From positions 4,560,001-4,592,000 of the forward strand of contig NC_014148.1 of NCBI RefSeq assembly GCF_000092105.1: a DNA stretch of 32,000 nt, given 5' to 3'. Position 1 is the stretch's first letter. Every line of letters begins with the position of its first letter. Below the pieces are notes generated by a model. The model did no database searches. It worked only from the letters and a program-made list of their open reading frames with translations, and had not been told where the DNA came from. This DNA is from Planctopirus limnophila DSM 3776. Lineage in GTDB: Bacteria > Planctomycetota > Planctomycetia > Planctomycetales > Planctomycetaceae. A program made the position numbers and the translations under genes. Shown piece after piece: positions 17,474-32,000 of this stretch.

Positions 17474-17752
17474 GACGAACAATCCTGGGGGCAGTCGGGA
17501 TGGTGAACTTGTCCTCTTGTTGTATCCGCAATAACGCTGGAGGGAAACTCCGGCGGATAGTCATACGTGATGAAATCCTCTTCAAAAAGTTTCCCGGACA
17601 GCTTTTCGCCACTGACAGATGCAGCTCTCGAAAGGTTCGCCCGATCACTCAAGGGAATCGCCAGAAAGGAGACATTGCCGCCAGATTTTGCGCAACAACC
17701 GCTGATAGGGTGAGAGGCCCGTTCACTCACACTTCTAACGGCGGAAAGCTCC

Positions 17753-19114
17753 ATGCTCACATTTCTGGCAGATACCCTGGCTCGCTGGCAGACACAGGCC
17801 CGTTACCGGCGCCGTGTGAGTGAACAGCTGCTTCAACTGGTCGAGCGAAAAACCTCGCTGAAAGACGACGATGTGGCTGGATGGCAGCAGATCTCGGGCT
17901 CCACACCGCAGAGTTCGCTTCCCGTCGGGAGTGCAAGTGCCTGGCGGGCCTCCCGCAAGCTGCATCTGCGCGATCAAGCCCGGCAACTGGTGACGGAAAA
18001 TCCCCATGCTCGCAACCTGCTGAGGCTCATGGAGATTTATGTGGTGGGTGCCGGTCTTGAACTCACTTTTCAGGCGCATCGTCCGGAAGATCAGGAACTT
18101 GCTAATCAAGCCACCCGGCTGTGGAAGGAGTTTCTCAGTCGGAACTCCCGCCACTTCTCGCCGCGCGAATATGCCCGCCGAGCCTGGCGTGATGGTGAAG
18201 TCTTCCTGCGACTTTTCCCCATGCCCGATGGTTCACTCGAAGTTCGATTTATCGACCCCGAAGCGATCGCTCCTTTGCCTCATGCTCCGGAAGACGAAGG
18301 GATTGTGACTTTACCTGGCGATGTCGAATCGGTGGTGGCCTATCATCATGTTGATCCACTCACGGGCCAGTGGCAAGGTGACCTTCCTGCGGAAGAAGTG
18401 ATTCACACGCGAATGGGCATCGATTCCAACGAACGGCGCGGCATCAGTCTCTTCGCTCCTATCATCGATTCACTGTCCCGATTTGATCACTGGCTGGAGA
18501 CCGAACTGACAGCCCGCAAGCTGCAGGCTTCGCTGGTCTTATGGCGTAAGATTCAGGGTTCACCGGCCCAGCTCTCTCAAATGGCTGAGAGTGGCCATAC
18601 TCCCCGCGAACGTTATCTGCCGGGAAGTATCCTGACGACATCCCATACCACCGATCTGCAGTTCCTTTCGCCCAATACAAACTTTGGTGATGCCGTCCCG
18701 CTGGGTCGATTGCTGCTGCTTTGTGTGGCGGCTGGTGCAGGTCTGCCGGAGTTCATGCTTTCGAGCGACGCCTCGAATGCCTCGTACTCGTCGACGATGG
18801 TGGCGGAAGGCCCGGCCGTCAAGCTCTTTGAGAGTGAGCAGCAGTTCTTTGCCCGTGAGTTCGAGCAGTTGAGCAGGGCCGTGTTACGAGCCGCTGCAAT
18901 CACACGCGGCTGGCCTGAAGATCTGCTCGATCGAATTGTGCCTCACTGGTCATTTCCACAGCTCGTCAATCGAGATCGTCCCCGCGAACGGCTGGCTGAT
19001 GTGCAACTGGTTGAGCAAGGGATTCTCAGCCGGGCTGAAGTCGCCCGCCGCGATCACGCCGACCCACAGACCATGCGGCGTGAACTCAATGAAGAAGCCG
19101 CACCAGTTGCATGA
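17753..19114 (+). CDS. Phage portal protein (lambda-like portal family pattern)
   Basis: 453 aa. The segment RDQARQLVTENPHARNLLRLMEIYVVGAGLELTFQ...ANQATRLWKEFL matches the conserved N-terminal pattern of lambda-type portals (R..aR.L..NnP.a......VvG.G, then W.e). It is the first gene of a head-tail array. Confidence 0.75.
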   Translation: MLTFLADTLARWQTQARYRRRVSEQLLQLVERKTSLKDDDVAGWQQISGSTPQSSLPVGSASAWRASRKLHLRDQARQLVTENPHARNLLRLMEIYVVGAGLELTFQAHRPEDQELANQATRLWKEFLSRNSRHFSPREYARRAWRDGEVFLRLFPMPDGSLEVRFIDPEAIAPLPHAPEDEGIVTLPGDVESVVAYHHVDPLTGQWQGDLPAEEVIHTRMGIDSNERRGISLFAPIIDSLSRFDHWLETELTARKLQASLVLWRKIQGSPAQLSQMAESGHTPRERYLPGSILTTSHTTDLQFLSPNTNFGDAVPLGRLLLLCVAAGAGLPEFMLSSDASNASYSSTMVAEGPAVKLFESEQQFFAREFEQLSRAVLRAAAITRGWPEDLLDRIVPHWSFPQLVNRDRPRERLADVQLVEQGILSRAEVARRDHADPQTMRRELNEEAAPVA

Positions 19115-19150
19115 TACCCATTGCAGTATTCAACTGCGTTCATTGGTATG

Positions 19151-19234
19151 GGGTGGCTGGGGTTGAGCGTCTTCGCGAACCCCCAGTTCATGCCGAAAAT
19201 CGCTGGGGGTTCGAAGACTCAACCCCAGCCACCC
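19151..19234. repeat. Module A element: 84-bp near-perfect hairpin 37 nt after the portal stop
   Basis: The arm gggtggctggggttgagcgtcttcgcgaaccccca pairs with tgggggttcgaagactcaaccccagccaccc. The arms differ only by two cg dinucleotide bulges. The outer gggtggctgggg is shared with module B termini. Confidence 0.85.
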
Positions 19235-19300
19235 ACCGCGTAGTTGTTTATTGACATCCGTATGATCCGTCTCCTGATGCCCGCCAGACGAGCTGGAAAC

Positions 19301-19382
19301 TCTCCCACTCCCCTTCTTTTCCTTTCCTCCTTCTTTCCCTTCTCCCCTTCTCTCCTTTTCACCTTCCACCACCTCACTTCCT
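19301..19382 (+). other. Polypyrimidine (C/T) tract upstream of the protease-scaffold gene
   Basis: tctcccactccccttcttttcctttcctccttctttcccttctccccttctctccttttcaccttccaccacctcacttcctg. It is almost purine-free on the gene strand and ends 15 nt before the ATG at 19398. Confidence 0.85.
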
Positions 19383-19397
19383 GTCAAAAGTCTCCAC

Positions 19398-20303
19398 ATG
19401 CCCACACCACTTGTTGAACATCTGCACGACTGGCATTCGGCCAGCCTCCGTGTCGATCGCGATGCCCGCATGGTTTATGACGTCGCTTTGACGGCCGCTG
19501 AATCGGCCAATGGCTATCGCTATCTCCCCGAAGCTCTGGAAAGTGCAGTCCCGCTCTACGAGCGAAAGCCTGTCTTTCTTGATCATGCTCCCGCCGCCCA
19601 TCGTCCCCGCGATCGCAGTATGCGCGATCTGGTGGGAACCATTCGTGCGGCACGCTACGTCGAAGGCCGCATTCGCGGCGACATTGAAGTGGTCGATACC
19701 GAAGCAGGCCGCATTTTTTTAGGACTCGTGGAAACTCAAAGCCCGGCCCTGGGGATGAGCCATGTCGTGCTTGCCCAGCAGGATCCGGCTGCCAAAACCA
19801 TTACAGCGATTGTCGATGTCATCAGTGTCGATGCTGTCGCTTTTCCCGCCACAGCCGCCACCTTTGCCGAGCAATCGGAAAGTGCGATTCCGCCTGAATC
19901 AACCACTTCCAGCGCCACATGTCACGCAAACCCGTCTTGTGCGAATTCGTGTGCCGCCTGCCAGCCGCAAATCAGTGAACTGACGCAATTGCAGCACGAG
20001 AATGCCGAGTTGCGACAGCAGATCCAGGGACTGCAGGAATCGCAACGCGACCTGCTGCAAACTCAACAAGTCCAGACGCTGCTCGAAGCGGCCCAACTGC
20101 CACCCGACCTGCTCACTCCCGAGTTCCGCCAACTGCTGGAGAAAACACCTCTGGGCCTAAGGCCCGCTCTCATCCAGGAACGCATCACTCTCGCCCGACA
20201 ATGGAGACCCACCCCGCACAGCCTTTCACGAACCTCTCACAGCTCTGCCAACCCGACGGACGCCTCGATTATCGAAACCATCCGCAAACGCTTCTCCCGC
20301 TAG
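19398..20303 (+). CDS. Putative prohead protease fused to a coiled-coil scaffold domain
   Basis: It sits between portal and capsid. The N-terminal roughly 150 aa fit an HK97-protease-like layout (KPVFLDHA...VGTI...GRIRGDIEVVDTEAGRIFLGLVETQSPALGMSHVV). The C-terminal heptad-like region ISELTQLQHENAELRQQIQGLQESQRDLLQTQQVQTLLEAAQ is typical of scaffolds. The call rests on pattern only. Confidence 0.5.
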   Translation: MPTPLVEHLHDWHSASLRVDRDARMVYDVALTAAESANGYRYLPEALESAVPLYERKPVFLDHAPAAHRPRDRSMRDLVGTIRAARYVEGRIRGDIEVVDTEAGRIFLGLVETQSPALGMSHVVLAQQDPAAKTITAIVDVISVDAVAFPATAATFAEQSESAIPPESTTSSATCHANPSCANSCAACQPQISELTQLQHENAELRQQIQGLQESQRDLLQTQQVQTLLEAAQLPPDLLTPEFRQLLEKTPLGLRPALIQERITLARQWRPTPHSLSRTSHSSANPTDASIIETIRKRFSR

Positions 20304-20364
20304 TCACGCCCTCTCAGTCAATGCTCATCTCCTGATTCCTTTCTCTCACTCTTGAAGGCTTCTC

Positions 20365-20862
20365 ATGCTTCCAGCACTTCGTTTCCGTTCTGGTCAGGTT
20401 CAGCTCCAGCGCTGGCCCGTTGCCAGTGAAACTGTCATCGAGCCAGGCGATCTCGTCTATTTCGATGGCACCTCGATCAAGCCCGCTTCGTCATTCCCCT
20501 GGACAACCAATCTCGTCACCACTCAGACAAACTTTGCCGCTGCCTTCGTGGGTGTGGCTCATCAGGCTTCGGCAGCGGGGCAAAATGCTCCCGTCTCAGT
20601 CGATATCAGCCCGCTCGCCACTTACGAATATGCGGTCTCATCCGGCAACTACACCGTGGGCCAGACGATCGCAGTTCATGGGGCTCCCAGTGCCTTGTCG
20701 AAGCAGCAGTTAGCCCCTTCTGTCAGTACGGCTGCCATGGCCCGGGCGGCTGAATCGGTGAGCAGCGCGACGACACTGCGTGTCAATTTTGCCAGTGCGT
20801 ACAGCGTCGCCAGCAGCAACATTCACGCTCAGCTCGGTCCAATTCCTGCATCCGAAGCGTAA
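20365..20862 (+). CDS. Putative head decoration / capsid cement protein (DUF2190-like pattern)
   Basis: 165 aa, immediately upstream of the capsid gene. The pattern GDLVYFDG...AAFVGVAHQASAAGQNAPVSVDISPLATYEYAV recalls DUF2190-type decoration proteins. The call rests on position and pattern only. Confidence 0.4.
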   Translation: MLPALRFRSGQVQLQRWPVASETVIEPGDLVYFDGTSIKPASSFPWTTNLVTTQTNFAAAFVGVAHQASAAGQNAPVSVDISPLATYEYAVSSGNYTVGQTIAVHGAPSALSKQQLAPSVSTAAMARAAESVSSATTLRVNFASAYSVASSNIHAQLGPIPASEA

Positions 20863-20957
20863 ACCACTCTCGCAGTTGCCTCTCATCCACCTGATTCATC
20901 CCTCTGGCTTCTCCCCTTTTCACCTTCCCCTCTTTTCGCCTACCAAGAACCCCACAC
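20863..20957 (+). other. Spacer S2 with polypyrimidine tract upstream of the capsid gene
   Basis: Bases 20881-20945 read tctcatccacctgattcatccctctggcttctccccttttcaccttcccctcttttcgcctacc, which is strongly C/T-rich on the gene strand. Confidence 0.7.
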
Positions 20958-22151
20958 ATGCCACACCTGCAACCACTCATCGCTTCACTGGGCCCCGAAG
21001 GCTTCTATCACAAGGTCTGCACGCTGCTCAATGAGAAGCAGCTCTCTGTCGATGACTTCAGTTATTACGAACTTGCCGAGGCCTGTGGTGTCCTCCCGGA
21101 GCTGCGCTCGACGCGACCACTCGCTACCGATCTACCCATTCCTGCACTCTTGCGAGAATCCAACCCGGGCGTGAACTCGTCGCTCTTTCAAGTCGTTACG
21201 GCCGAACTCATTGGCCGCAAAGTTCTCGAAGGCTACGAAGATGATTCCGGTTTCATTGGCGATCGTCTTGTCACGGTTCTTCCCAGCCGGGGAAGATCGC
21301 AGAAGCTCGCGGGCTTTCGCGCCTTGAGCGGCCCGACGGAAGTCTCGGAAGGTCATCCCTATGAAGAATCGACCTTCAGTGAAAAATTCATCACGACCGA
21401 AGAAGCCAAGCGCGGCCGCATTCTTTCGATCAATGAAGAGCTGATTGCTTTTGACCAGACGGGCGAAATCAACCGCCGGGCACTGGCCCTGGGCTTCTAT
21501 CTGCGTCAGGAGCGAGAGCGGACGATTGTGCGGGCAGTGACCGATGCCGACGCGGGCCAGCAGCGATTTGTCTATCGACCTTCGGGGCAGGGCCAGGTGC
21601 TCTACAAGGCTGATGGTTCGCATCAGAACGTCATCGGGCCAGACAACATCACCTCGATCGACTTTGCCGAAAGTCTCCCGCTCACCAACTGGGACGACAT
21701 CGACAAAGTGCTCAATTACCGCGCGACACAGATCAAAGACGATCGCATCGATGGTGCTCCGCGACCCATTCTCGTTCCTGCCCGGCAGATACTTGTCCCC
21801 GAAAAACTACGCGGCACCGCGCGCAGCCTCGTGCATGCCAGCGAGATCATCGTCACCACCGAAGACCGCGAAACCCGCCTCGCCAACCCTATTCGCGATC
21901 AGTTCGAAGTCCTCTCGTCCCCGTTCATTGATGAGCAGGGAGGCAGTGCCCTCTCTGCGTGGTATCTGGGCGATTTCAAGCGCCAGTTCGTCTGGACAGA
22001 AATCTGGCCCGTGCAAACCTTCCTCCAGCGGGAAACGAGCGAAGGGGCTTTCGATCGCGATGTCGTCCTGCGGGTGAAAGCCCGTTACTTCGGCGGAGTT
22101 TCAGCCGTCGATACCGTCTTTGTCACCAAGGTCGATGGCAGCGAAGAATAA
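20958..22151 (+). CDS. Putative major capsid protein
   Basis: 397 aa, in the canonical position after portal, protease-scaffold and decoration genes. It is the largest head gene after the portal. The central block SEGHPYEESTFSEKFITTEEAKRGRILSINEELIAFDQTGE resembles capsid-family blocks. No search was run. Confidence 0.55.
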   Translation: MPHLQPLIASLGPEGFYHKVCTLLNEKQLSVDDFSYYELAEACGVLPELRSTRPLATDLPIPALLRESNPGVNSSLFQVVTAELIGRKVLEGYEDDSGFIGDRLVTVLPSRGRSQKLAGFRALSGPTEVSEGHPYEESTFSEKFITTEEAKRGRILSINEELIAFDQTGEINRRALALGFYLRQERERTIVRAVTDADAGQQRFVYRPSGQGQVLYKADGSHQNVIGPDNITSIDFAESLPLTNWDDIDKVLNYRATQIKDDRIDGAPRPILVPARQILVPEKLRGTARSLVHASEIIVTTEDRETRLANPIRDQFEVLSSPFIDEQGGSALSAWYLGDFKRQFVWTEIWPVQTFLQRETSEGAFDRDVVLRVKARYFGGVSAVDTVFVTKVDGSEE

Positions 22152-22219
22152 TCGTTCACTGAACCTTTCAATCCCTCTGTTGTAGACTCTTCAACCATCC
22201 TCGTGCAGGTTTCTGGGCC

Positions 22220-22720
22220 ATGCCGTTCTGCCTTCCTCGACCCCACAGTGATCCCGTCCTACTCGATCTGAGGCCCTTGCCACTCGGCTTCCAGCAATTG
22301 CTCAAGCGGCATGGCATCATCGCCCCGACTCCACCGATGCGTCTGGCTCGCGACAGTCATGGCAAACCGGTCAAAGATGCCCAGGGTCAGCCCGTCCGCC
22401 TGATCGATGAAACCAACGACACCTATCAGAATGAGTGTGAACTCTATCACCAGCGAATCGCAGTCCTGGCGGTCGCTTTTGCCTTAAGGCACGACCCCAC
22501 ATCACCTCTAGCAGGTTGCTGGCCAGTGCTGCAGCAACCGCCCGTCGGAGAATGGACGGCCTGGGCGGATCAACTCTTCGAGACGCTGGTCTCTGCTGGT
22601 TGGCTGGCGGGCGATCTCCTGGCGTCCTGCACAGAGATCACACGTCTGAGCAATCTGATCAGCGATCGACTGGTGGCAGCTCAAGCCTCTTTCTCGGACA
22701 GTGGGAGTTCGACCGGCTGA
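22220..22720 (+). CDS. Hypothetical phage-module protein; may continue to 22875 in the -1 frame
   Basis: 166-aa ORF with coding-like composition. The downstream 51 codons (22721-22875) read well in another frame but have no ATG, GTG or TTG start (see findings). Confidence 0.6.
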   Translation: MPFCLPRPHSDPVLLDLRPLPLGFQQLLKRHGIIAPTPPMRLARDSHGKPVKDAQGQPVRLIDETNDTYQNECELYHQRIAVLAVAFALRHDPTSPLAGCWPVLQQPPVGEWTAWADQLFETLVSAGWLAGDLLASCTEITRLSNLISDRLVAAQASFSDSGSSTG

Positions 22721-22875
22721 ACCCTGCATCGACCACCCGCTCGATCAACTACTACATCCTCCGCTGTTGTGAACGACTCCATCTTGTAGAAGCCAGCTTC
22801 TACGAACTGAGTTTCGAAGAACAAATCCGCCTCCTCGGCTACGAACTCCTCCGCCAGGCCGAAGATGCAATTTAA

Positions 22876-23358
22876 GAATCAACATCCCCCTTCTCCCGTA
22901 GGGTGCCATGCCGCGTCAGCGAAATGCACCAACTCTTCCCCATTTTTCCTTCTGTCCTACCCGCCTTTCCCCCTTCGCAGCCTTCGCGTCTTCGCGCGAG
23001 CTCTCCGAATTTCAAACTCATCCTCACGCGAAGCCGCGAAGTTCTCCAAGAAGATCTGCATGATTCACCACTTCCGCAAATCTCCCGATCTCTAATTCAT
23101 CCGGGTGGCAGGGGTCGGATGTCTTTATCCGCCCCCATTGTCAAAAGCGTTCACCAGCACAAATGCATCGGCAACCTTCCTCACAACTCCCCAGCCACGC
23201 TTCTTAATCACCACGCTCACCTCGAACTTCTTCCCTTCCCCCCCTTTCTGCCATCCCTTTTTTCCTTCTTCCCTTCTTCCCTTCTTCCCTTCTTCCCTTC
23301 TCCCACTTCGCATCTTCGCGCGAAACCATCCATCCCATCACCTTCCCATGGCCTCAGC
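22876..23358. repeat. Spacer S3, a composite of repeat modules
   Basis: Contents in order: module E (22896-22930, ccgtagggtgccatgccgcgtcagcgaaatgcacc), a C/T tract, the module C hairpin (22971-23057), a partial module B element (23103-23198), a C/T tract with an octamer microsatellite, and the palindrome ttcgcgcgaa (23315-23324). Confidence 0.85.
23264..23303 (+). repeat. Octamer microsatellite (ccttcttc) x4 plus one imperfect unit
   Basis: Direct count gives ccttcttc at 23264, 23272, 23280 and 23288, then ccttctcc at 23296. Confidence 0.9.
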
Positions 23359-23631
23359 ATGACCGATCTCCCCGATCTCTCACAAACCACAGGCGAGCCA
23401 CTCACCGAGTCCCAAATCTGCGGCATCCTCGCCCAGATCGATCTCGATATCCTCAATCTCCTCCGTGATGGAAAACTCGCCGCTCTCAAATACTCAGCCC
23501 CAGGAGCCGGCCCGCAGACCGATCGTGCCGCCAACCTTCAGGCTCTCCTCAATGCCCGCGAAAGCTATCAGAAACTCCTCCACAGTCTGCCGCTCTGGCA
23601 AACCTCCGCCGCCGATCTCAGCCACACCTGA
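23359..23631 (+). CDS. Small hypothetical head/neck-associated protein (90 aa)
   Basis: MTDLPDLSQTTGEPLTESQICGILAQIDLDILNLLRDGKLAALKYSAPGAGPQTDRAANLQALLNARESYQKLL. Its size and helical pattern loosely resemble gpW-type head-completion proteins. The upstream 152 codons of ORF 22903..23631 are repeat-derived and were rejected. Confidence 0.5.
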   Translation: MTDLPDLSQTTGEPLTESQICGILAQIDLDILNLLRDGKLAALKYSAPGAGPQTDRAANLQALLNARESYQKLLHSLPLWQTSAADLSHT

Positions 23632-23675
23632 ACGCCAACTCCCCGGCACATCCCTTCTTTTCAGGATCTCACTTC

Positions 23676-23921
23676 ATGCCACCCCCACCGGCTCACGAAC
23701 GACTCGATCGCCTGCTCGACACCTTGCAGTCATTGGCCATTCAGCTCGAACAGCTCAGGGTCTCACTCGAAGTGCTGGTCGAGCTTTCCAAAGACCACGA
23801 AACACGCCTGCGCCTCGTAGAAACTCATCAGCACAGGCTGACACCACTCGTGGGTGGCCTCGTCTTTCTGATCACTTCCATGGCGACTGTCGCCATCACG
23901 CAGTGGTTCACCCGCATCTGA
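23676..23921 (+). CDS. Small coiled-coil protein with a C-terminal transmembrane helix (XhlA-like architecture)
   Basis: The N-terminal heptad region is RLDRLLDTLQSLAIQLEQLRVSLEVLVELSKDHETRLRLVE. The hydrophobic helix is LTPLVGGLVFLITSMATVAITQWF. Confidence 0.55.
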   Translation: MPPPPAHERLDRLLDTLQSLAIQLEQLRVSLEVLVELSKDHETRLRLVETHQHRLTPLVGGLVFLITSMATVAITQWFTRI

Positions 23922-23954
23922 GCATTCTTCGACGCTTTCGATTCAAAGGTCATC

Positions 23955-24347
23955 ATGCCCGCACTTGCCTTCACAGATCTGGTGTCCGCCGATCTGCTCC
24001 TCATGTTTCACGACTGGGGCCAACCCGCCCAATTGCTGGCTGTGCTCGAAACGTCGCCTCACGAGCCACCCAGCCGCACCTGGCTGACGACGAACGACGC
24101 GCCACTCATTGTCCTGCCCGATCACACACTGGCCAATCAGCCCGCGTCCTCTCCTCAAGGCACATTATCAGCAGTCACGCCAGAAACCCGCTTCTTCGTC
24201 CGAGCCAGCACATGGCCTGTCCTGCCCACCGGCGCACTGCTGGAATTATCGACTCCCCATGGAAGCTGGGCCGTCACCCAGATCCATCCACTCCCGGATT
24301 CCGAACTCCTGGTGATTTCAGCCCGTGATCTGGCCCCTGCCGATTGA
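23955..24347 (+). CDS. Putative head-tail adaptor / head-closure protein
   Basis: 130 aa, immediately upstream of the HK97 gp10-like gene. The C-terminal pattern TRFFVRASTWPVLPTGALLELSTPHGSWAVTQIHPL fits head-tail joining proteins. The call rests on position and pattern only. Confidence 0.4.
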   Translation: MPALAFTDLVSADLLLMFHDWGQPAQLLAVLETSPHEPPSRTWLTTNDAPLIVLPDHTLANQPASSPQGTLSAVTPETRFFVRASTWPVLPTGALLELSTPHGSWAVTQIHPLPDSELLVISARDLAPAD

Positions 24348-24388
24348 AGATCTCTTCTCTCTCTTTTCCCCATCGATCTCATCCAACC

Positions 24389-24778
24389 ATGAACCAACCC
24401 CTGGCACTCCGTATTGTGCTCCAACCTCCACCCGCTCCGGGAATCTTTCCCGACTTTCAGCGCGATCAGCTCACTCCTTTCCGCCAGCGACTCGTTCGTC
24501 AGACAGCCAGAAAACTGCTGCAGCGCATTGCCCAGTTGACTCCTGTCGATACAGGCCGGGCTCAATCGAGCTGGCTGCTCGCTGCCCAACAACTCCAGCC
24601 CGAAACAGCCGCCAATACCGCAACTCCCGATCTGCAGATCACGGAAGGAAAAATTGGTTCGCTTTCCATCATCACCATTGTCAATCAGGTGCCCTACATG
24701 CCCTTTCTCGAATTGGGAACCAGCCAGATGTCTCCCTTCGCCATGATCCGGCGGGCACTACTCGAACAGATCCGCTGA
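24389..24778 (+). CDS. HK97 gp10-family neck/tail-completion protein
   Basis: The signature LTPVDTGRAQSSW (PVDTGxLRxS-type motif of the HK97 gp10 family) is followed by VPYMPFLELGTS. I chose the ATG at 24389; the ORF track opens at 24344, overlapping the previous gene. Confidence 0.65.
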   Translation: MNQPLALRIVLQPPPAPGIFPDFQRDQLTPFRQRLVRQTARKLLQRIAQLTPVDTGRAQSSWLLAAQQLQPETAANTATPDLQITEGKIGSLSIITIVNQVPYMPFLELGTSQMSPFAMIRRALLEQIR

Positions 24779-24804
24779 TCTTTTACTGGAGGCGAACTCC
24801 CCTC

Positions 24805-25257
24805 ATGCCCTCACCTGCCCAACTCCAGCACAGTCTCATCGACTATTGGCAATCGGTCTGCCCGGATGAACTCCCCACGCTTTGGCCAGGCCGCAAAGCC
24901 GATCCTCAATCGTGGCAGCAATGGTGCGAACTCCGCGTCGATAGCTGGACACAGCCCATCCAGAGGCTCGGTCGCTCTCACATCGCCTGCGTCATCACTC
25001 TCCGGCTCTTTGTCAGGCAGATCGCCTCTTCCCCGGAGGCAACTCTCCCTTCTCTGCACAGCCGACTGGAACAACTTCAGACAGTCGTCACTCAGGCCTG
25101 GCACGAACAGACGATTCCCATCGTGGATGATCTTCCTGAGAATTCCGCCAGCATCATCGGCTATCTGCGCGTGGCCGACCTCACGTCTCGATCGATCGAA
25201 ACATCATCTCCCACACTCCTGGGGCGCGAGTTCCTCATCACGGCCCGCACCTCCTGA
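24805..25257 (+). CDS. Putative tail terminator / tail-completion protein
   Basis: 150 aa, between the gp10-like gene and the tube gene. It is the coding-like C-terminal half of ORF 24325..25257; the N-terminal 160 codons overlap the two preceding genes in another frame. Confidence 0.45.
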   Translation: MPSPAQLQHSLIDYWQSVCPDELPTLWPGRKADPQSWQQWCELRVDSWTQPIQRLGRSHIACVITLRLFVRQIASSPEATLPSLHSRLEQLQTVVTQAWHEQTIPIVDDLPENSASIIGYLRVADLTSRSIETSSPTLLGREFLITARTS

Positions 25258-25331
25258 AGTCGACGTCCTGAGGATCGTTCGCGATCCTCGTCAATTCCCA
25301 CCCCCAATATCTCTTCCTATTGAGGCACTCT

Positions 25332-25850
25332 ATGCCCACCTCGGCTCTCGTTCGAAATCTTCGCGATGGGGAACTTCTCATTCGCGATGGCACGACTCCC
25401 ACACCCAAATCGCTCATTGTCCTGCTCGATGAAGGGGATCTTTCCTGGACAGAACGCTCACGCACCATCGAGATCAAAGATCGTGGCTCAATTGCACAAG
25501 GCCATCTCCGCAAAGGGGACGACGAATCGGTCTCGCTCTCGTTTACTGCCAAGTGGACACAGCTGCTCAGTCAATCGATTGAACCAACCGATCCCCTGGC
25601 ACTCTACGAGTTCCTCACCTTTCAGCCACCAGCCAACATCACCAGCACGTCACCCGCCGGCCAGCAACAGACACTCGAACTCGTCTTCACCATTCACGAT
25701 CCCGCGGGCGGCTCCAGCGAAGTCGTCACGTTTCTGAATGTCTATCGCGAAACTCTCACACTCTCCGAAGGGGCTGAAGCCAACACCATCGCCTTCGCCG
25801 GCCGCGCCTTCCAGACAGCACCACAAATCACCCGCTCCACCCCGGAATGA
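25332..25850 (+). CDS. Putative major tail (tube) protein
   Basis: 172 aa, the last gene before the tape measure. It is beta-rich with DGTTPTPKSLIVLLDEGDLSWTERSRTIEIKDRGSIAQGHLRKGDDESVSLSF, a pattern common in siphovirus tube proteins. Confidence 0.5.
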   Translation: MPTSALVRNLRDGELLIRDGTTPTPKSLIVLLDEGDLSWTERSRTIEIKDRGSIAQGHLRKGDDESVSLSFTAKWTQLLSQSIEPTDPLALYEFLTFQPPANITSTSPAGQQQTLELVFTIHDPAGGSSEVVTFLNVYRETLTLSEGAEANTIAFAGRAFQTAPQITRSTPE

Positions 25851-26041
25851 ACACTTCGTTTTCCTCTTCCCGTAGGGCGCCATGCAGCGCCAGCGAAATG
25901 CACCAACACTTCCCCCTTTTTCCTTCCCGCCTTCCTGCCTTCCCGCCCTCTTCCCTTCACTCCCTTCGCAGTCTTCGCGCGAAGCAATCCCCACTCCCAA
26001 CTATCCACCAACAACCCACAACTCCCTCATCGAGTCACCCC
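25851..26041. repeat. Spacer S4, a composite of repeat modules
   Basis: Contents in order: module E (25869-25904), a C/T tract (25909-25968), the 12-bp palindrome cttcgcgcgaag (25973-25984), and module F (atccccactcccaactatccaccaacaacccacaactccc, about 25987-26030). Module F recurs at about 28050-28092. Confidence 0.85.
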
Positions 26042-26773
26042 ATGTACTCCGAATCCTTAACCCTCCGCATTCTCGCCGATAGCTCCGAGCTGGAATCGCG
26101 GCTGGGTGATCTCGGGCGGCAACTCAGCTCTTTGCAATCCTCGACAGATCGGCTCTCTTCATCTGCTTCCCGCCTAACTGGCGCGTTTCAAATGACCAGT
26201 GCCATGAACTCTGTCGAACGTCTCAGCCGGAGCCTGCAAGCCCTCCAGCGCCAGGTTCAGCAGATCTCAGGCACACCCCTCAACCTCAATGTCAGCCCGG
26301 CTCTGGCGGCCATTGCTTCCGTCAGCCGAGCACTCAGTCAACTGGCCCGACAAGTCTCGACATTCCCTTCGATGACTGGCTCAGGTTATCTCCCCCTGGG
26401 CACAGGTTCTTTCCTGCCGACTGGCACCGGTTCCTCGTATGGTGGTGGCTCGACGACGAACACACGCCGCTTTGCCACGGGTGGCCTCGTCACGGGCCCA
26501 CCCGGCATCGACCGCATCCCGGCTCTCCTCACGGCTGGTGAATACGTCCTGAGTTCCGAAGTCGTGCAGCGACTCGGGCTCGGAAATCTGTCTCAACTTT
26601 CAGCCGCTGCTTCCGGCTCTTCAAGAGCCATCGCTCCACCAGCCACCGTGCAGAATTCCCATCATCAATCGATTGGCGAACTGCACGTTCACATGGCACA
26701 GACCCTGGATCTCGCATCGTTCACCGAGAATCTGGCCGCCGATGCCCAAAGACTCCGCCATCGCCGCGGCTAA
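26042..26773 (+). CDS. Short tail tape measure protein
   Basis: 243 aa. The N-terminal part is helical and low in complexity (LESRLGDLGRQLSSLQSSTDRLSSSASRL...LQALQRQVQQI). The C-terminal block RRFATGGLVTGPPGIDRIPALLTAGEYVLSSEVV matches the conserved tape-measure C-terminal motif type (G..G.D.vPa.l..GE.V). It directly follows the tube gene. Confidence 0.65.
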   Translation: MYSESLTLRILADSSELESRLGDLGRQLSSLQSSTDRLSSSASRLTGAFQMTSAMNSVERLSRSLQALQRQVQQISGTPLNLNVSPALAAIASVSRALSQLARQVSTFPSMTGSGYLPLGTGSFLPTGTGSSYGGGSTTNTRRFATGGLVTGPPGIDRIPALLTAGEYVLSSEVVQRLGLGNLSQLSAAASGSSRAIAPPATVQNSHHQSIGELHVHMAQTLDLASFTENLAADAQRLRHRRG

Positions 26774-27316
26774 GATCCTTTTCCCATTTCTACCTGTCGC
26801 CAAATTTTGCCTCTTGATTCCCTTCGCAGCCTTCGCGTCTTCGCGCGAAACGATCGAACGAAAACTCATCCTCACGCGAAGCCGCGAAGTTCTCCAAGAA
26901 GATCAGTATGAGTGTCTCATGTCCCATCTGGAACCCTCGCCCACGTCCTCGTGGGAGAGGGCAGGGTGAGGGTCTTTTCACTCTCTTATTGTGTTGTGTG
27001 CCATGCTTGCAGCTCTGGGCAAGCATGTCTTCGCGCCGGGTGGCAGGGGTCGGATGTCTTCATCCGCCCCCTGGTCCTTCGATTTCACCAGCACGAATGC
27101 ATTCAGTACGTTCCTCACTACTCACACCAAAAGACCTGGGGGCAAACGAAGACGTTTGACCCCAGCCACGCTTCTTAATCCCCACTTTCACCACCGACTC
27201 TGTCCCTTTCTTCCTTCCTGCTTTCCCGCCTTCTGCCCTTCCTGCCTCTGCGGCTTCGCGAGAGACCTCTGAATTCATCTCTTCTCTTCCCCCCATCCTC
27301 ATCGGCTCACGACATC
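26774..27316. repeat. Spacer S5, a composite of repeat modules
   Basis: Contents in order: the module C hairpin (26819-26904, including the palindrome ttcgcgcgaa at 26840-26849), module D (26911-26978), a module B element with both termini (27038-27169), C/T tracts (27181-27250 and 27277-27300), and a half C arm cggcttcgcgagagacc. Confidence 0.85.
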
Positions 27317-27757
27317 ATGCCCCTCCAATTCCACCCGGCGATCGCCCGATCGACCGCCTGGTTCTCGCTCCCGCGGCCCATCGTTTCTCTTCGTGTGCAG
27401 GACGTTTGGGATTCCGAGCGATTCAAGTCTCCACTGATTGATGGCCAGCGCACGGTCGGTCATTCGCAAGGTGGCTCGACGATTGTCATTCAAGGACAGG
27501 TCGCTGCCCAGGCGGGCGAAGTTCGCTTCACGGAAGCCGAGATGCTGGCCACACTGCTTTCTTTGCGTGAGGCCCTGCATGTGGGCGAGTCACAGCCCAA
27601 GTTCGACTTTGTGCTCTTTTTCGATCCCGTCACCCACGAGCGGCAATACTTCCAGGAGTGCTCGACGACCCGTTTGGAATGGGATCTCTCCGAAGCCAGC
27701 CTCTACACCTATTCCCTCACGATCCAGGCCGACGATCCCCAGATTCACACTGCCTGA
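27317..27757 (+). CDS. Putative distal tail protein (Dit-like)
   Basis: 146 aa, the first gene after the tape measure. It contains SPLIDGQRTVGHSQGGSTIVIQGQV. The call rests mainly on position. Confidence 0.4.
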   Translation: MPLQFHPAIARSTAWFSLPRPIVSLRVQDVWDSERFKSPLIDGQRTVGHSQGGSTIVIQGQVAAQAGEVRFTEAEMLATLLSLREALHVGESQPKFDFVLFFDPVTHERQYFQECSTTRLEWDLSEASLYTYSLTIQADDPQIHTA

Positions 27758-28106
27758 GAAACCTCTGCACGAAAAATCATCCTCACGCGAAGCCGCAAAG
27801 TTCTCCAAAAAGATCAGCCGACTCTTCTGTAGGGCATGCTCCCGCATGCCACAGAATTCGTGTCTCATGTCCCCCTCTGGAACCCTCGCCCGGTCTGCCG
27901 GGAGAGGGCAGGGTGAGGGTCTTTTCCCCATTTCTTAAACGTCTTGATCTAACGCGCTATGCAGAGCCAGTAACCTGCACCAACCTTCAAACTTCAAACA
28001 TCAAACATCAAACTTCCCCCTTCTTCCCTTCGCTGCCTTCGCGCGAAACCATCCACTCCCAACCCTCCACCAACAACCCACAACTCCCCCAACCCCGGCT
28101 CACTTC
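27758..28106. repeat. Spacer S6, a composite of repeat modules
   Basis: Contents in order: the module C right arm (27776-27816), an E-like hairpin ggcatgc/gcatgcc (about 27832-27849), module D (27860-27925), a heptamer repeat wtcaaac x4 (27986-28013), a C/T tract, the palindrome ttcgcgcgaa (28038-28047), and module F (about 28050-28092). Confidence 0.85.
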
Positions 28107-29918
28107 ATGCGCAACATCTTTCTCCATGCCGGCAGCCCCTCAGCAGCACCTCTCCTCATCGACCATCGCCTCGTCTCTGGCTGCTGGTTCGAATGGCTTC
28201 GGCAAGGGGGCTGCGGCCCAGGCGAACTCGAATGCAATCTCCCGCTCGACAGCCCACTCTTCGCACCTGGCGATTTCGTCTCGATCGAAGATCATCTCGG
28301 CACCCGCTGGTACCTCGGACGCATTGAAGAACATCTCACCCGCTGGCCCAACCGCGCCATTATTCGCCTGGAAGGCCTCGCAGTTGAACTGGGCGAAGTC
28401 TTCCCCGGTGGCTTCGCGAACAACGAAAGCGATGCTCCTGATCCCTATCGACTGGGCCTCACCGAAGGTGGATTCTCCTTCGATCCCGATTACGGCAACG
28501 AATCCTTCGCCTTCGCCTCACGGCCCGAAGACGTCGTCCGCAAACTGCTCGAACTCGAAGAGATTGCCAGCACCCAGATCGCTTTCCCGTCCGAAGAAAT
28601 CACCAACACCACTACTCCCGTCCCTTTGGAAAGCTTCAAGTTCCATGGGGAAGAATCGCTCCGTTCGATTTTCAAAGATCTCGCTCTGAGGGCTGGCAAT
28701 GCTCCCTGGGGTGTCGATGAAATGGGCCGCTTCTTTTTCCGTGCCGGGCAGGAATTCGCGACACAGACCATTCCTCGAACTTCGATCATCCAGCTTGAAC
28801 ACTCCCGCAGTCTCGATCAGATCTTCAATCGCGTCCTGCTGACCGGGGCCTACCTTTATCTTCCCAATGGCCAGCCTTATCGCTGGCGCGGCAACTATAC
28901 AGAACCCACCAGCCGGGCTTTGTATGGCGAACGCCGCATTCGCTTGTGGGTGCCCTGGATTCGTACGGCTCAGGATGCCCGTGGCTTCCTCAAGGAATTC
29001 TTTTCGCAATATGCCTTTCCCACAGGCCGCCTGCAGGTGGAGTCGGTCGCTTCGACCCAATGGTTGCCCCCCTGGAAAACGCGCTATCAGATGGAAGGCT
29101 TTTCGGGATCCACCGGAGCCACCTGGCAGGCCGACAAGCTCCGCATCGAGTTCAATGAAACACCCGTCTACAGGCTCGAACTCGGGCCCGTTAATCCGCG
29201 AACTCTCTGGCCAGAACCCGATCACGATGAACGCTGGCCCCTCGCACCCACCAGCGAACTCCCCTCTGGCTTTGGTGGCGAAGACATCCCCCTCCCCTGG
29301 CCTCCCGGCGGCGGTGGTGGTGGCGGCGGTTCTTCCTCCAGCAACGATTCTCTCACCTCCGACGAACTCTCCTCCTCGCTCGAGCTCTCTTCGAGTGAGG
29401 CCTCATCCACTCTCGACAGTTCCTCGGATTCCAGTTCGTGGCTCACCAGCGATTCAACTGGCGATTTAACCTTCACCAGCAGCGATGCCAGTCACTCCTC
29501 ATCGGCCACATCCAGCAGCACAGAAAACTCCTCCAGCTGGCACTCCTCTTCGCTCTGGTCTTCTTCTGAGTCTCTCGAAAATTCATCATCGAACAGCGAT
29601 TCGCTCTCCAGCGATCCCCTTTCAAGTCAATCCTCCAACCAAGAAACCACCTCCAGCGAAGAAACACCCTCTAGCACAGAATCAGCAGCCACCCCCACAT
29701 CATTCGCACTTCCGACGGACGAACCAACCTCCACCCTCTCACCTCCCACCGATTCACCCACATCCTTCGAACCCCCTCACTCATTCGATTCGACAGAGAC
29801 CGCTCCCCTCACGATCAGCAGTGAAGAGTCCGAATCTCCCTTCACTGAATCCTCCGCATCCACCGCCAGCGAATCGTTAGAACCCCCCGCGAGCGCTCCT
29901 TCTGAAGATCTCCCTTAA
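28107..29918 (+). CDS. Putative tail hub/fibre protein with a C-terminal acidic Ser/Thr-rich low-complexity tail
   Basis: 603 aa. The N-terminal roughly 390 aa is globular-looking and sits in the position of a tail hub/Tal protein. A GGGGGGG hinge follows, then about 200 aa dominated by S, T, E, D and P (SSSSNDSLTSDELSSSLELSSSEASSTLDSSSDSSSW...). Confidence 0.55.
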   Translation: MRNIFLHAGSPSAAPLLIDHRLVSGCWFEWLRQGGCGPGELECNLPLDSPLFAPGDFVSIEDHLGTRWYLGRIEEHLTRWPNRAIIRLEGLAVELGEVFPGGFANNESDAPDPYRLGLTEGGFSFDPDYGNESFAFASRPEDVVRKLLELEEIASTQIAFPSEEITNTTTPVPLESFKFHGEESLRSIFKDLALRAGNAPWGVDEMGRFFFRAGQEFATQTIPRTSIIQLEHSRSLDQIFNRVLLTGAYLYLPNGQPYRWRGNYTEPTSRALYGERRIRLWVPWIRTAQDARGFLKEFFSQYAFPTGRLQVESVASTQWLPPWKTRYQMEGFSGSTGATWQADKLRIEFNETPVYRLELGPVNPRTLWPEPDHDERWPLAPTSELPSGFGGEDIPLPWPPGGGGGGGGSSSSNDSLTSDELSSSLELSSSEASSTLDSSSDSSSWLTSDSTGDLTFTSSDASHSSSATSSSTENSSSWHSSSLWSSSESLENSSSNSDSLSSDPLSSQSSNQETTSSEETPSSTESAATPTSFALPTDEPTSTLSPPTDSPTSFEPPHSFDSTETAPLTISSEESESPFTESSASTASESLEPPASAPSEDLP

Positions 29919-29974
29919 GCCAATCAGCAACCTCTCTCGGAATCTTCTTTTCCCACCTCGAAAGCGCCACGGAC

Positions 29975-30925
29975 ATGTTCTATCGTTCGACCACCGATCA
30001 GCAATGGTCGCCGCTCGATCTCGAAAACCTCTACGCCGGACCGCAAGGTTCCGCCTGCTGGCTCTTAGGTGGCGGCCCTTCACTCACCACTCTTCCACTC
30101 GAAAAAATTCGCTCGTCGCTCGCTCCTATCATGGCCATCAACCTCGCAGGTCATGGCCACATCATCCCCGACTTCTGGACAGCCTACGACCCCACCACAC
30201 GCTTCCTCCCGGCCAACTATCGCACTCCCCGCACTCTCAAATTCATTCACAAAAGACGGGCCATGGATCTCCTTCCCGGCGACACCTTCAAACTCTGCGA
30301 ATGCCCAGGTGTGGTCTTCTTCGAACACGAAAAACGCAACCACTCCCGCTCCTTCTCGTCAGCCGCCACACGCATTCTCGACTGGAATGATTCCTTCATT
30401 CAGGCCCTCGATCTGCTCCTGCATCTCGGCTTTCGCACCATCTACCTCGCAGGCTGCGAACTCTACATCGCTCCCTCGACGGAACTCCAGCAACAGGCTC
30501 AGCAACACGGCCTCATTTATCAGCCCGGCCAATCGCTAAGGCTCTTTCTCGAAGCCTGCCGCAGCCAGGACATCGCCCCGGAACTCACGGAAACCGCCAT
30601 CACCGGCCCTCAATATCACTTTGATGAAGCCAAGCCCCTGGCAGCGACCCTTCGTACCGACGACCACTACCTGCGCACCGTTCAACTCCTCAGACTCTCA
30701 CGCCAGGCACTGACCCAAACGGGCCTGAAGCTCATCTCCGTCACACCTCACAGTCGCCTCAACGATTTCTTCCCCTATCAGACCATCGCACACGCCCTCG
30801 AAGATCTCGCCCACATCCAAGGCCCACCCGCACATCAGCAAACCCGCGGCCTCTACACCGGCCAACCCATCCTGGCCCCACAACTCACCTGCCCCATGCG
30901 CGACCTCAAAGCCCCCATCGCGTAA
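29975..30925 (+). CDS. DUF115 / MptE-like (Maf-type) putative glycosyltransferase
   Basis: CWLLGGGPSLTTL...APIMAINLAGHGHIIPDFWTAYDP and FIQALDLLLHLGFRTIYLAGCEL match the GxGPSL ... PD..v..D ... G.D layout. That layout is shared by DUF115 motility-accessory-factor and sialyltransferase-like enzymes. Confidence 0.55.
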   Translation: MFYRSTTDQQWSPLDLENLYAGPQGSACWLLGGGPSLTTLPLEKIRSSLAPIMAINLAGHGHIIPDFWTAYDPTTRFLPANYRTPRTLKFIHKRRAMDLLPGDTFKLCECPGVVFFEHEKRNHSRSFSSAATRILDWNDSFIQALDLLLHLGFRTIYLAGCELYIAPSTELQQQAQQHGLIYQPGQSLRLFLEACRSQDIAPELTETAITGPQYHFDEAKPLAATLRTDDHYLRTVQLLRLSRQALTQTGLKLISVTPHSRLNDFFPYQTIAHALEDLAHIQGPPAHQQTRGLYTGQPILAPQLTCPMRDLKAPIA

Positions 30926-31267
30926 GGAGTCACCAGCATGCGTTTCACCTTCTGACGCGTGACGAGACATGGGGTATTCGGTATTTGGAATTTGGGTGGC
31001 ACGTCCCTGAAGGCTTTGCGAAAGGGCGTGGTCTTTAGGTTTTTCTACATCAACTCTGATGTCCAGCCGCTTGGCCCGTCCAACTGCCCCTCTGGAACCC
31101 TCGCCCGGTCTTCCGGGAGAGGGCAGGGTGAGGGTCTTCTGCCTTTGTTGTAGGGTGCCATGCAGCACCAGCGGAATGCACCACCTTCCTGCCTTCCCAC
31201 CTCATTCCCTTCTTGCCTTTCCGACCTTCCTCTCTTCCAACCTTCTTCCCTTCTCCGGCCCCCGTTC
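30926..31267. repeat. Spacer S7, a composite of repeat modules
   Basis: Contents in order: module D (31087-31140), module E (31149-31182, tgtagggtgccatgcagcaccagcggaatgcacc), and a C/T tract (31183-31260) ending 8 nt before the ATG at 31268. Confidence 0.85.
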
Positions 31268-31975
31268 ATGCACAACCCCCTCGCCCGCCAGGTGACAGTC
31301 GTCATCCCGGTCTATGGCAGCCTCGATCATCTCCAGAAATGCCTCACTTCACTCCTCGCCTGGCATCATGTTCCCATCGTCGTCATCGATGACGGAAACC
31401 CACCCGGCACACTCCAGCACTTCGCCTCAATGCCCGGCTTGAAAATCATCCGGCAACCCCATTGCGGCGTCACCCAGGCCTGGAACAACGGCATCGCCGT
31501 CGTCCGCACACCCCTCGTCATCCTGCTCAACAGCGATGTCATCACCAGCGGCCCCTGGATCGACCAGATCCTCGCACCACTGCAGAAGTCAGAATCACCA
31601 CACTTTGTGCCCGCTCAACTCACTGGTGCTGCCTGGCAATCGCCCACTGCCTCAGCCAGTGTCGGCATGCCGGCCCAAAGCCTGCTCGCCGGCTGGTGCC
31701 TCGCCTTCCGCAAGTCACTCTGGCACTACTTAAGACACTTCGACGAACGCTTCCGTCACTGGTATTCCGATACCGATTTCCAAAAGCGTCTGCTGGCCAG
31801 CTCCTCCGCAGATCACACTTCCACAAGTCCTATCCGCTGCATCGACACACTCCCATTGAGTCACGCACTCCACGCCTCGACCCGACATCTCCCCGCTCGC
31901 TCACAACTCTACGCTCTCGATCGAACCGCTTACTTCCAGAAGTGGCAGCCTGAAGGCCATCGACCATGCACCTGA
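31268..31975 (+). CDS. GT2-family glycosyltransferase
   Basis: VTVVIPVYGSLDHLQKCLTSL, VVIDDGNP, GVTQAWNNG and ILLNSDV (DxD-like) give a GT-A fold signature. I chose the ATG at 31268; the 36 codons upstream in ORF 31160..31975 are repeat-derived. Confidence 0.7.
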   Translation: MHNPLARQVTVVIPVYGSLDHLQKCLTSLLAWHHVPIVVIDDGNPPGTLQHFASMPGLKIIRQPHCGVTQAWNNGIAVVRTPLVILLNSDVITSGPWIDQILAPLQKSESPHFVPAQLTGAAWQSPTASASVGMPAQSLLAGWCLAFRKSLWHYLRHFDERFRHWYSDTDFQKRLLASSSADHTSTSPIRCIDTLPLSHALHASTRHLPARSQLYALDRTAYFQKWQPEGHRPCT

Positions 31976-32000
31976 TTCAAGTCATCAACGTCGGCCAGAT
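31966..32000 (+). CDS. Start of a further ORF, truncated by the window end
   Basis: atgcacctga overlaps the GT2 stop codon and reads MHLIQVINVGQ. Only 11 codons are visible, so no function can be assigned. Confidence 0.3.
   Translation, partial: MHLIQVINVGQ

Follow-up and report, generated by a model that had tools for sequence, protein, structure and literature searches.

The DNA analysed here, called the window below, is a 32,000-nt stretch from Planctopirus limnophila DSM 3776, and its right-hand part (17753-31975) is occupied by an array of 16 open reading frames (ORFs), all on the plus strand and in a lambda-like head-tail order in the ORF listing (Table 1). Homologues of these genes, and of a packaging module found at other loci, occur throughout the Planctomycetaceae; the array is probably part of a phage-derived particle system resembling a gene transfer agent (GTA). 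Loci used for comparison are given as L numbers.

A first-pass annotation, made from the sequence alone, had read the ORFs as a canonical series running from portal through protease-scaffold, decoration protein, capsid, joining proteins, tube and tape measure to a Dit-like and a hub or fibre protein. Hidden Markov model (HMM) searches, which it had proposed, uphold the portal, capsid, neck and tape-measure assignments and turn up no lysogeny, lysis or replication genes; the protease-scaffold, decoration, tube, distal-tail (Dit)-like and hub/fibre labels are based on position, size and conservation only. For the unannotated ORFs, sequence searches of PHROGs, Pfam, NCBIfam and PDB gave nothing significant, a pooled PHROG scan of 41 orthologues yielded only four weak matches, and PDB profile searches with the putative protease (g02), the putative tube (g11) and g15 gave no matches.

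Across six orthologues, g02 has a conserved N-terminal domain of ~165 aa, with the invariant motifs NGY.Y, LYE.K.V..DH and GMSHV, and a variable, helical, coiled-coil C-terminal half. A conserved domain containing His and Ser followed by a variable helical tail fits, but does not prove, a protease-scaffold fusion; there is also a weak match to phrog_29592 (unknown function, 5.8e-7), and none in Pfam. The g03 product is conserved at 36-54% in L053, L054, L057, L065, L089 and L090, and the capsid protein is 68-73% identical in other genera. No family match was found for g05; g06 is called as a 90-aa gene in the close relatives L060 and L061, and g08 has positional equivalents in other genera.

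The Caulifigura orthologue of g11 is named “Phage major tail protein 2” in UniRef. A Pfam search with 30 tube orthologues found nothing significant. An AlphaFold2 (AF2) model built from a 30-sequence alignment is mostly beta strand, at low confidence (predicted local distance difference test score, pLDDT, of 48); in Foldseek it has no match at E<=0.001, and the tail tube proteins of T5, HFTV1 and an extracellular contractile injection system (eCIS) are reached only at a template modelling (TM) score of ~0.37. The short tape-measure-like protein (g12) has an N-terminus that appears by eye to be coiled-coil; the corresponding ORF in L053 is 358 aa long, with an uncertain start.

At the distal end, the C-terminal tail of g14 (~200 aa) is acidic and Ser/Thr-rich (40-60% S+T), and its composition, though not its sequence, is conserved in four genera (including L053, L054, and L065). 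In arrays across the genera g14 is always followed by g15 and a family-2 glycosyltransferase gene (GT2), and often by a family-1 gene (GT1). PF01973 matches four of five g15 orthologues at 0.002-0.007, below the Pfam cut-off, and a single-sequence AF2 model has a pLDDT of 36. The start of g16, the GT2 gene of the window, is uncertain, 31160-31267 being repeat DNA; orthologues 30-31% identical occupy the same position in L054, L065 and L090.

GC skew on the coding strand of the Planctopirus array is strongly negative (-0.12 to -0.38 for g06-g16), reaching -0.63 at third codon positions, and is near zero in the host genes of the window. The homologous arrays in L053 and L054 have a strongly positive skew (+0.33), and that of Caulifigura one of +0.09. 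The strand asymmetry is lineage-specific and does not extend beyond the element.

Table 1. Features of the window, in order of position. Accessions are from exact protein look-ups; percentages are identities or conservation in the genera or loci named; D numbers are repeat families; TMP, tape measure protein; dN/dS, ratio of nonsynonymous to synonymous substitution rates.
Feature	Coordinates	Strand	Evidence and remarks
Host-side repeat copies	16148..16571	.	D1, D2, D7, D8; tandem pair, 239-nt period
ilvE-like class IV aminotransferase, host gene, left array boundary	16607..17482	-	PF01063, 1.6e-61
Divergent intergenic region 5' of portal gene, presumed promoter region	17483..17752	.	270 bp, direct sequence reading
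g01, portal, lambda family, 453 aa	17753..19114	+	ADG69358/WP_013111789; PF05136, 1e-30; phrog_21, 3e-37; dN/dS 0.073
Repeat module, portal-g02 spacer	19180..19234	.	D11, copy of host 7875-7929, 89% identity
g02, putative prohead protease with scaffold-like C-terminus, 301 aa	19398..20303	+	Position after portal; dN/dS 0.092
g03, 165 aa, lambda gpD position (decoration/accessory head)	20365..20862	+	Position only; dN/dS 0.077
g04, major capsid protein, 397 aa	20958..22151	+	Plim_3549; PF25209 Phage_capsid_4, 2e-16; dN/dS 0.007
g05, 166 aa, head-completion/connector candidate	22220..22720	+	37-47% in other genera; dN/dS 0.18
Composite repeat block, g05-g06 spacer	22889..23330	.	D3, D4, D6, D7, D9, D12
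g06, 90 aa, connector candidate	23359..23631	+	49-66% in other genera; dN/dS 0.21
g07, 81 aa	23676..23921	+	In Planctopirus relatives and Caulifigura (43%); dN/dS 0.056
g08, 130 aa	23955..24347	+	Conserved in Planctopirus relatives; dN/dS 0.285
g09, neck (Ne1)/tail-completion	24344..24778	+	phrog_169, 2.3e-13; phrog_17193, phrog_5; dN/dS 0.17
g10, 150 aa, tail-terminator position	24805..25257	+	Position only; 23-26% in other genera; dN/dS 0.20
g11, putative tail tube, 176 aa	25320..25850	+	Directly 5' of TMP-like gene; dN/dS 0.017
Repeat block, tube-TMP spacer	25863..26029	.	D4, D13
g12, short tape-measure-like, 243 aa	26042..26773	+	C-terminal motif, several PHROG TMP families, 5e-5 to 4e-3; dN/dS 0.13
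Composite repeat block, TMP-g13 spacer	26818..27319	.	D2, D3, D5, D6, D7, D8, D9, D12
g13, 146 aa, distal-tail (Dit) position	27317..27757	+	Position only; 37-46% in other genera; dN/dS 0.09
Repeat block, g13-g14 spacer	27758..28091	.	D3, D5, D6, D13
g14, hub/fibre candidate, 603 aa	28107..29918	+	Plim_3561; N-terminal ~400 aa 39-44% in other genera; dN/dS 0.10-0.31
g15, 316 aa, weakly MptE/Maf (DUF115)-like	29975..30925	+	44-48% in L053, L054, L065, L089, L090; dN/dS 0.19
Repeat block, g15-g16 spacer	31087..31228	.	D4, D5
g16, family-2 glycosyltransferase, last conserved array gene	31268..31975	+	PF00535, 9e-15; dN/dS 0.6 vs L059

Conservation within the family and the packaging module

Comparison of synteny and dN/dS among related genomes, as the first-pass annotation had advised, finds the array syntenic in P. 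ephydatiae (L061) and two metagenome-assembled genomes (MAGs) of the Planctopirus lineage. One of these, GCA_006365015.1 (L060), keeps the gene order from SNF2 through to the hub gene, with 92-94% nucleotide identity; the other, GCA_027483405.1 (L059), is collinear with window positions 26318-32000 at 90-93%. P. ephydatiae keeps the ilvE-portal junction, with different genes beyond ilvE, and the junction is also kept in L060 and in Logan contigs L062 and L063. The portal gene does begin 270 bp from the start of the divergent ilvE-like gene, as had been noted (17753 versus 16607-17482, minus strand); the spacer is 247-267 bp in relatives. Gene lengths are the same in L060 and L061, among them 453, 301, 165, 397, 166, 90, 81, 130, 129-144, 150, 172-176, 243 and 146 aa.

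By the Nei-Gojobori method, all array genes but g16 have dN/dS values of 0.007-0.31 (capsid 0.007, tube 0.017, portal 0.073, the 12 others 0.06-0.31), and host neighbours have 0.007-0.24; the ilvE-like gene itself has 0.007 relative to L060. Synonymous divergence (dS) is 0.13-0.30 in the array versus 0.11-0.27 in the host neighbours. Within the genus, then, the array and its surroundings are equally old, and purifying selection acts on the array.

The large terminase that the first-pass annotation did not find in the window is indeed absent: tblastn with the family's packaging proteins (HTH-like, ParB, ATPase, GNAT, TerS, and TerL) gave a best E of 0.19. Its statement that integrase, replication and endolysin genes are lacking also stands, in that Pfam and PHROGs scans of the large window ORFs found no integrase, lysis or replication families. 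It had suggested looking further to the right, where 7.7 kb of L059 past the glycosyltransferase gene proves to be host DNA, with Pyr_redox, pyrroloquinoline quinone (PQQ)-repeat and ribosomal protein S1 genes; terminase, integrase and lysis genes are all absent from it. The arrays in L064, L065, L089 and L090 likewise have no integrase gene in the 10 kb around them.

Beyond the genus, the portal protein has 678 homologues, the best 120 of which are 52-57% identical over their full length and come from many Planctomycetaceae genera; the putative tube protein has 290, at 62-71% identity across the family; and the family's large terminase subunit (TerL) has 451. Homologues of all three at 50-70% identity occur throughout the Planctomycetaceae, in at least 10 genera. 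Those named include Polystyrenella, Calycomorphotria, Caulifigura, Symmachiella, Thalassoglobus, Planctomicrobium, Maioricimonas and Lacunimicrobium, all members of the family. Every array examined has the capsid protein.

The gene set is divided among two, three or more loci on the chromosome, and the division varies from genus to genus. In Caulifigura coniformis the portal gene stands alone among host genes at 58 kb (L004), and an array running from protease to glycosyltransferase without a portal gene lies ~120 kb away, at 180-191 kb (L065), adjoining divergent ParB_N and helix-turn-helix (HTH)-like genes. In Polystyrenella and Symmachiella, host genes begin immediately after a six-gene packaging module and the portal; Maioricimonas (L089) has, like Planctopirus, a portal-led array without TerL; and Lacunimicrobium (L090) has an array without a portal. 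A single contiguous version, from IMG/VR (L054), runs from a GNAT-like gene and TerS/TerL through g15 to GT2 and GT1, in what is probably the ancestral arrangement. A conserved set broken at different places into between one and three or more loci across genera cannot be a mobile prophage. IMG/VR lists the 56-kb L054 stretch as a provirus.

The packaging module consists of six genes, encoding HTH-like (118 aa), ParB_N, ABC-like ATPase (~240 aa), GNAT-like (~120-160 aa), TerS-like and TerL (PF03354) proteins. It was seen at L003 (5774-9915) and at 45 further loci (L006-L050), most of which keep all six genes; these 45 come from a scan of one genome per species with narrow peptide patterns, which returned neither Planctopirus nor the genomes that had supplied the patterns. 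Among the TerL loci examined (the 45, L003, and L005), adjacency being judged in those with enough downstream sequence, the portal gene follows TerL in only five. The flanking genes are otherwise unrelated, except for a ThiF gene in 11 loci. To our knowledge, the ParB_N, ATPase and GNAT-like genes are not part of known GTA clusters. In MAG ABC1.68 (L007, 4996-13027), an ilvE homologue (71%) lies 1.4 kb upstream of the packaging module and portal and in the same orientation, whereas in Planctopirus ilvE adjoins the portal directly and divergently. The arrangement may be left over from the event by which the packaging module was removed, or it may be chance.

Protein searches found no Planctopirus TerL among the 120 listed of 451 matches, nor in 20 candidate clusters, likely because TerL of the Planctopirus clade is a long branch. 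A metagenome scan with a 36-sequence TerL alignment recovered an 8.6-kb contig, VFQR01003575.1 (L067), from the same whole-genome shotgun (WGS) assembly as L060, with a GC content of 0.563 and a 164-nt Planctopirus-specific repeat module. It carries open ATPase, GNAT-like, TerS-like and TerL genes between host-like flanks, with no portal downstream. Its TerL keeps 75 of 75 family-invariant columns and is 52-56% identical to those of other genera and 78% identical to that of “Planctomyces sp.” MAG L046. The search for a terminase at other loci that had been recommended thus finds a conserved packaging module elsewhere in the lineage, and the terminase, although missing beside the portal, has not been lost from that lineage; judging from L067, DSM 3776 very likely encodes the module elsewhere in its genome. 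A cluster of planctomycete-type TerL proteins (P0169) also holds the Durusdinium trenchii proteins CAK9016155, CAK9100488 and CAK9015442, annotated “Quinone oxidoreductase” or “Phage Terminase”; these are likely bacterial contamination or chimeric gene models.

The GC content of the packaging module rises and falls with that of its flanks (r=0.965 over 26 loci, range 0.50-0.68), and TerL and the adjacent ThiF diverge in step (pairwise identities, r=0.95, Mantel p~2e-4, 11 loci). The GC correlation, the co-divergence of TerL and ThiF, the dS values and the repeats described below bear out the long residence in the genome that the first-pass annotation had argued for from the repeats.

Relatives among phages are distant. 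A tblastn search of 50,697 GenBank phage records with the capsid protein gave no match, and the nearest phage portals are only 24-26% identical, while the capsid family is broad in metagenomes (848 clusters at 50% identity, E<=1e-3). Four IMG/VR contigs (L055-L058; for example L057, 1-21002) encode capsid, tube, protease and TerL proteins with 45, 39, 30 and 36% identity, respectively, together with a deoxynucleoside monophosphate (dNMP) kinase (PF21448), and have TerL on the opposite strand. These contigs resemble free phages akin to the ancestor of the element. Their tape measure has 1022 aa, versus 223-252 aa in chromosomal versions from six genomes.

Repeats and host neighbourhood

Repeats of families D1-D13, 25-167 nt long, lie in the array spacers and in host intergenic DNA, with copies ~64% to 100% identical to the family reference; copies common to host DNA and array are mostly 77-99% identical. 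The host copies are at 4484-4653, 7875-7929 and 16148-16571, confirming that the two share repeats, as the first-pass annotation had reported; it counted seven repeat-bearing spacers in the array, where six are found here. Two 167-nt copies in tandem, 99% identical, lie at 16163-16568, with the LolA-like gene on one side and the end of ilvE (3') on the other.

Among the ~90 loci examined, these repeats occur only in Planctopirus-lineage sequences. They are found between genes and never within them, and the spacers that carry them vary in length between P. limnophila, P. ephydatiae and the two MAGs, leaving the ORFs untouched. The portal-g02 spacer is 283 nt in P. limnophila versus 129-143 nt in relatives; that between g05 and g06, which holds a 19-nt inverted repeat, is 638 nt versus 305-321; that between tube and tape measure is 191 nt versus 469 and 168; and that between tape measure and g13 is 543 nt versus 337, 100 and 250. 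From their placement and the strain-variable spacer lengths, the repeats behave as small mobile elements resembling miniature inverted-repeat transposable elements (MITEs), tolerated only between genes.

The repeats also create spurious ORF extensions (22903-23358, 25847-26041, and 31160-31267). The long ORFs 22903-23631, 25847-26041 and 31160-31267 were rejected as coding, as the extensions traverse repeat DNA not present in relatives. The earlier description of the structural ORFs as open holds for all 16; the single frameshift that it considered possible was rejected, since relatives call the same separate genes and the extensions through repeat DNA account for the layout.

To the left of the array, Pfam scans find ordinary host genes at 181-17482: aceE-like and aceF-like genes, a LysR regulator, an SNF2 helicase, a GT2 gene, a PMT_2-family glycosyltransferase, a LolA-like protein and the class IV aminotransferase (ilvE-like). 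A 276-aa ORF between the SNF2 helicase and GT2 genes (11121-11951) has no Pfam or PHROG match, and the orthologous DNA of L060 carries two in-frame stops; it is probably not a gene, or a pseudogene in that relative. No sigma-70 consensus was found in the ilvE-portal spacer; promoter and terminator consensus scans of the window gave counts at or below shuffled expectation, and an Rfam scan of the window matched no family.

Interpretation of the array

The reading preferred here, at a probability of roughly 0.6, is that the array encodes the structural half of a phage-derived particle system, vertically inherited across the Planctomycetaceae, and that the particle would be GTA-like and not a prophage. 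The parts of this reading differ in strength. That the system is domesticated is highly probable. That its role is GTA-like DNA transfer is suggested by the conserved packaging genes and is somewhat more likely than not. It is a more tentative proposal, one that we would put at somewhat short of even odds, that it is a functional family-wide GTA, domesticated independently of known GTA lineages and unrelated to them, older than the genera, with scattered genes, a terminase assisted by ParB, ATPase and GNAT-like proteins, and a glycosylated fibre. The first-pass annotation had likewise favoured a structural module kept under selection over a recently integrated prophage, and synteny, dN/dS and family-wide conservation support it in this.

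Several genomic features by which GTAs are recognised are found: chromosomal phage-like genes without a lysogeny, replication or self-propagation module at the loci inspected, signs of purifying selection and vertical inheritance, and encoding genes that apparently could not be packaged as one unit. In the mechanism proposed, the loci would be co-expressed on some signal, and a lambda-like head and short non-contractile tail would be assembled; a tape measure of ~243 aa, at ~0.15 nm per residue, predicts a tail of roughly 35 nm. TerS and TerL would then fill the heads with DNA, expected to be host DNA, as in GTAs. Since more than 100 kb can separate the encoding genes, a single headful could not hold the whole system, and the particles would be unable to propagate themselves. 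The Ser/Thr-rich tail of g14 would probably be glycosylated by the co-conserved g15, GT2 and GT1 proteins, which is offered as a lead only, and probably mediates adsorption.

A number of observations weigh against this picture. The system is known here from its genes alone, and the tube, Dit, hub, protease and decoration labels are positional. In every genus examined (including L061, L065, L089, and L090), the tube gene is separated from the tape-measure gene by a spacer of 45-469 nt that holds no tail-assembly chaperone genes (usually a G/GT pair), and no lysis genes or regulator were identified at the loci inspected. The TerL evidence comes from a lineage 92-94% identical to DSM 3776, not from DSM 3776 itself, and what ties L067 to Planctopirus is the WGS prefix it has in common with L060, its GC content and a single repeat module of 164 nt. 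In L054, the only contiguous version, the portal (2694-3819) is missing approximately residues 325-416, with the rest in a different frame; either a pseudogene or an error in sequencing would explain this. Selection on g16 is relaxed (dN/dS 0.6), the alignment of the L060 hub gene falls into two segments, through a possible frameshift or misassembly, and the repeats in the spacers might interrupt transcription of the operon.

Among the alternatives, the strongest is a domesticated system with a role other than GTA: killing or competition by a headed, bacteriocin-like particle, superinfection exclusion or a decoy function, DNA release in biofilms, or delivery of protein cargo. All of the evidence for domestication fits such a role equally well. 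The packaging module has ParB_N, ABC-like ATPase and GNAT-like genes unlike known GTAs, the glycosyltransferases are conserved together with the Ser/Thr-rich tail of the fibre, and exclusion of the related free phages (L055-L058) is conceivable. However, portal, TerS-like and TerL proteins are conserved with all catalytic columns, placing DNA packaging under selection, and a killing particle or decoy needs no DNA packaging; known tailocins have lost their head genes. The conserved packaging enzymes thus argue against these roles, which we regard as unlikely, if well ahead of the remaining alternatives. A tailocin in the strict sense was rejected because portal and capsid are present and constrained and TerL is conserved in the lineage, and a phage satellite (phage-inducible chromosomal island, PICI, or capsid-forming PICI, cf-PICI) because there is no integrase or replication gene and the array has its own tail module, made up of neck and tape-measure genes and conserved tube, hub and Dit candidates.

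A decaying cryptic prophage whose structural half has persisted by chance would explain why the window lacks terminase, integrase, lysis and replication genes, why host repeats have invaded the spacers, and why the L054 portal is damaged. It is nevertheless very improbable: all 16 ORFs are open, capsid, tube and portal have dN/dS values (0.007, 0.017, and 0.07) like those of housekeeping neighbours, the repeats keep to the spaces between genes, and the same genes are kept in at least 10 genera at 50-70% identity, although remnants decay within a species and not over family-level time. An ordinary functional prophage with its other modules just outside is scarcely to be expected, even though the window stops at 32000, in or just past the last array gene, since the 7.7 kb of L059 past the glycosyltransferase gene has no phage function, the left flank of ilvE and host genes is kept in three lineages, complete genomes from other genera have components as much as 120 kb from one another, and the TerL of the lineage is on a different contig with host-like flanks. 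An intact temperate prophage was rejected on the same lines, the window having no integrase, repressor, replication, lysis or terminase gene, the flanks in relatives being host genes and the components dispersed.

Few independent domestications of phages into GTAs are known, and each has changed the view of horizontal transfer in its host clade. If the GTA-like reading is correct, the element would be a new, non-homologous GTA lineage in Planctomycetota, present in at least 10 genera, and a major unnoticed route of gene exchange in a phylum for which, as far as we know, none of this kind has been described. The same gene set in one, two, three or more loci according to genus would make an unusually clear signature of domestication. 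The ParB_N, ABC-like ATPase and GNAT-like genes beside TerS/TerL could offer a handle on the control of a domesticated terminase, and the glycosyltransferases beside a Ser/Thr-rich fibre one on how particles recognise cells. A caution also follows for provirus predictors, which label such chromosomal loci as viruses (IMG/VR L053 and L054). P. limnophila is a cultivable model planctomycete with published genetic tools (PMC11958385), so that particle production, DNA content and transfer are directly testable.

Comparison with known systems

A full-text literature search found no description of a GTA-like element in planctomycetes, nor one among newly reported GTAs; the sole planctomycete mentioned in a paper on GTA terminases is an unrelated Zavarzinella prophage. 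The best point of comparison is RcGTA of Rhodobacter capsulatus, which stands for the RcGTA-type agents of Alphaproteobacteria (reviews PMC11841831 and PMC10883770). RcGTA likewise has chromosomal, vertically inherited head-tail genes of siphovirus type under purifying selection, no integrase or replication genes, a short tape measure and genes at more than one locus, and is unlikely to carry its full gene set in one particle. The portal and capsid here belong to PF05136 and PF25209, whereas those of RcGTA are of HK97 type; TerS, TerL and portal stand together in the ~15-kb RcGTA cluster, whereas here TerL and portal are apart in most genera and the portal can be solitary; and the ParB_N, ABC-like ATPase, GNAT-like, g15, GT2 and GT1 genes conserved here are additional, in a different host phylum, the Planctomycetota. 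An RcGTA-like cluster was rejected on this family assignment and on the lack of TerL in the window.

For the other GTAs (BaGTA of Bartonella, VSH-1 of Brachyspira, Dd1 of Desulfovibrio, and VTA of Methanococcus), we know of none reported with a solitary portal or conserved glycosyltransferases. They share the evolutionary route proposed here, in which a host lineage captures a tailed phage and retains it as a gene set that makes particles (PMC9953437, on viriforms). Gene content and host clade differ, and they are probably unrelated in sequence.

The head genes of the array resemble the head module of phage lambda (B, C/Nu3, D, and E) in having a PF05136 portal (1e-30) and in the order portal, protease/scaffold-like, small protein and capsid, with compatible sizes. 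Only the portal family is demonstrably shared: the capsid is PF25209, g02 and g03 have no detectable similarity to their counterparts, and no terminase stands upstream of the portal. PBSX of Bacillus subtilis consists of host-encoded tailed particles that package host DNA and do not propagate, which is the likeness proposed for the present system from its genes; PBSX, however, is a contiguous region with its own terminase, lysis and regulatory genes, limited to close relatives, versus a family-wide, dispersed set here. By analogy, the glycosyltransferase genes beside structural genes, with a Ser/Thr-rich possible substrate, recall virion glycosylation in mycobacteriophages and the Maf (DUF115) glycosyltransferases of flagellins, although g15 matches PF01973 only below the Pfam threshold and glycosylation is suggested by that analogy only. 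Set beside these systems, the element looks previously undescribed, sharing the evolutionary signature of GTAs and differing from them in protein families, host phylum, dispersal and extra genes.

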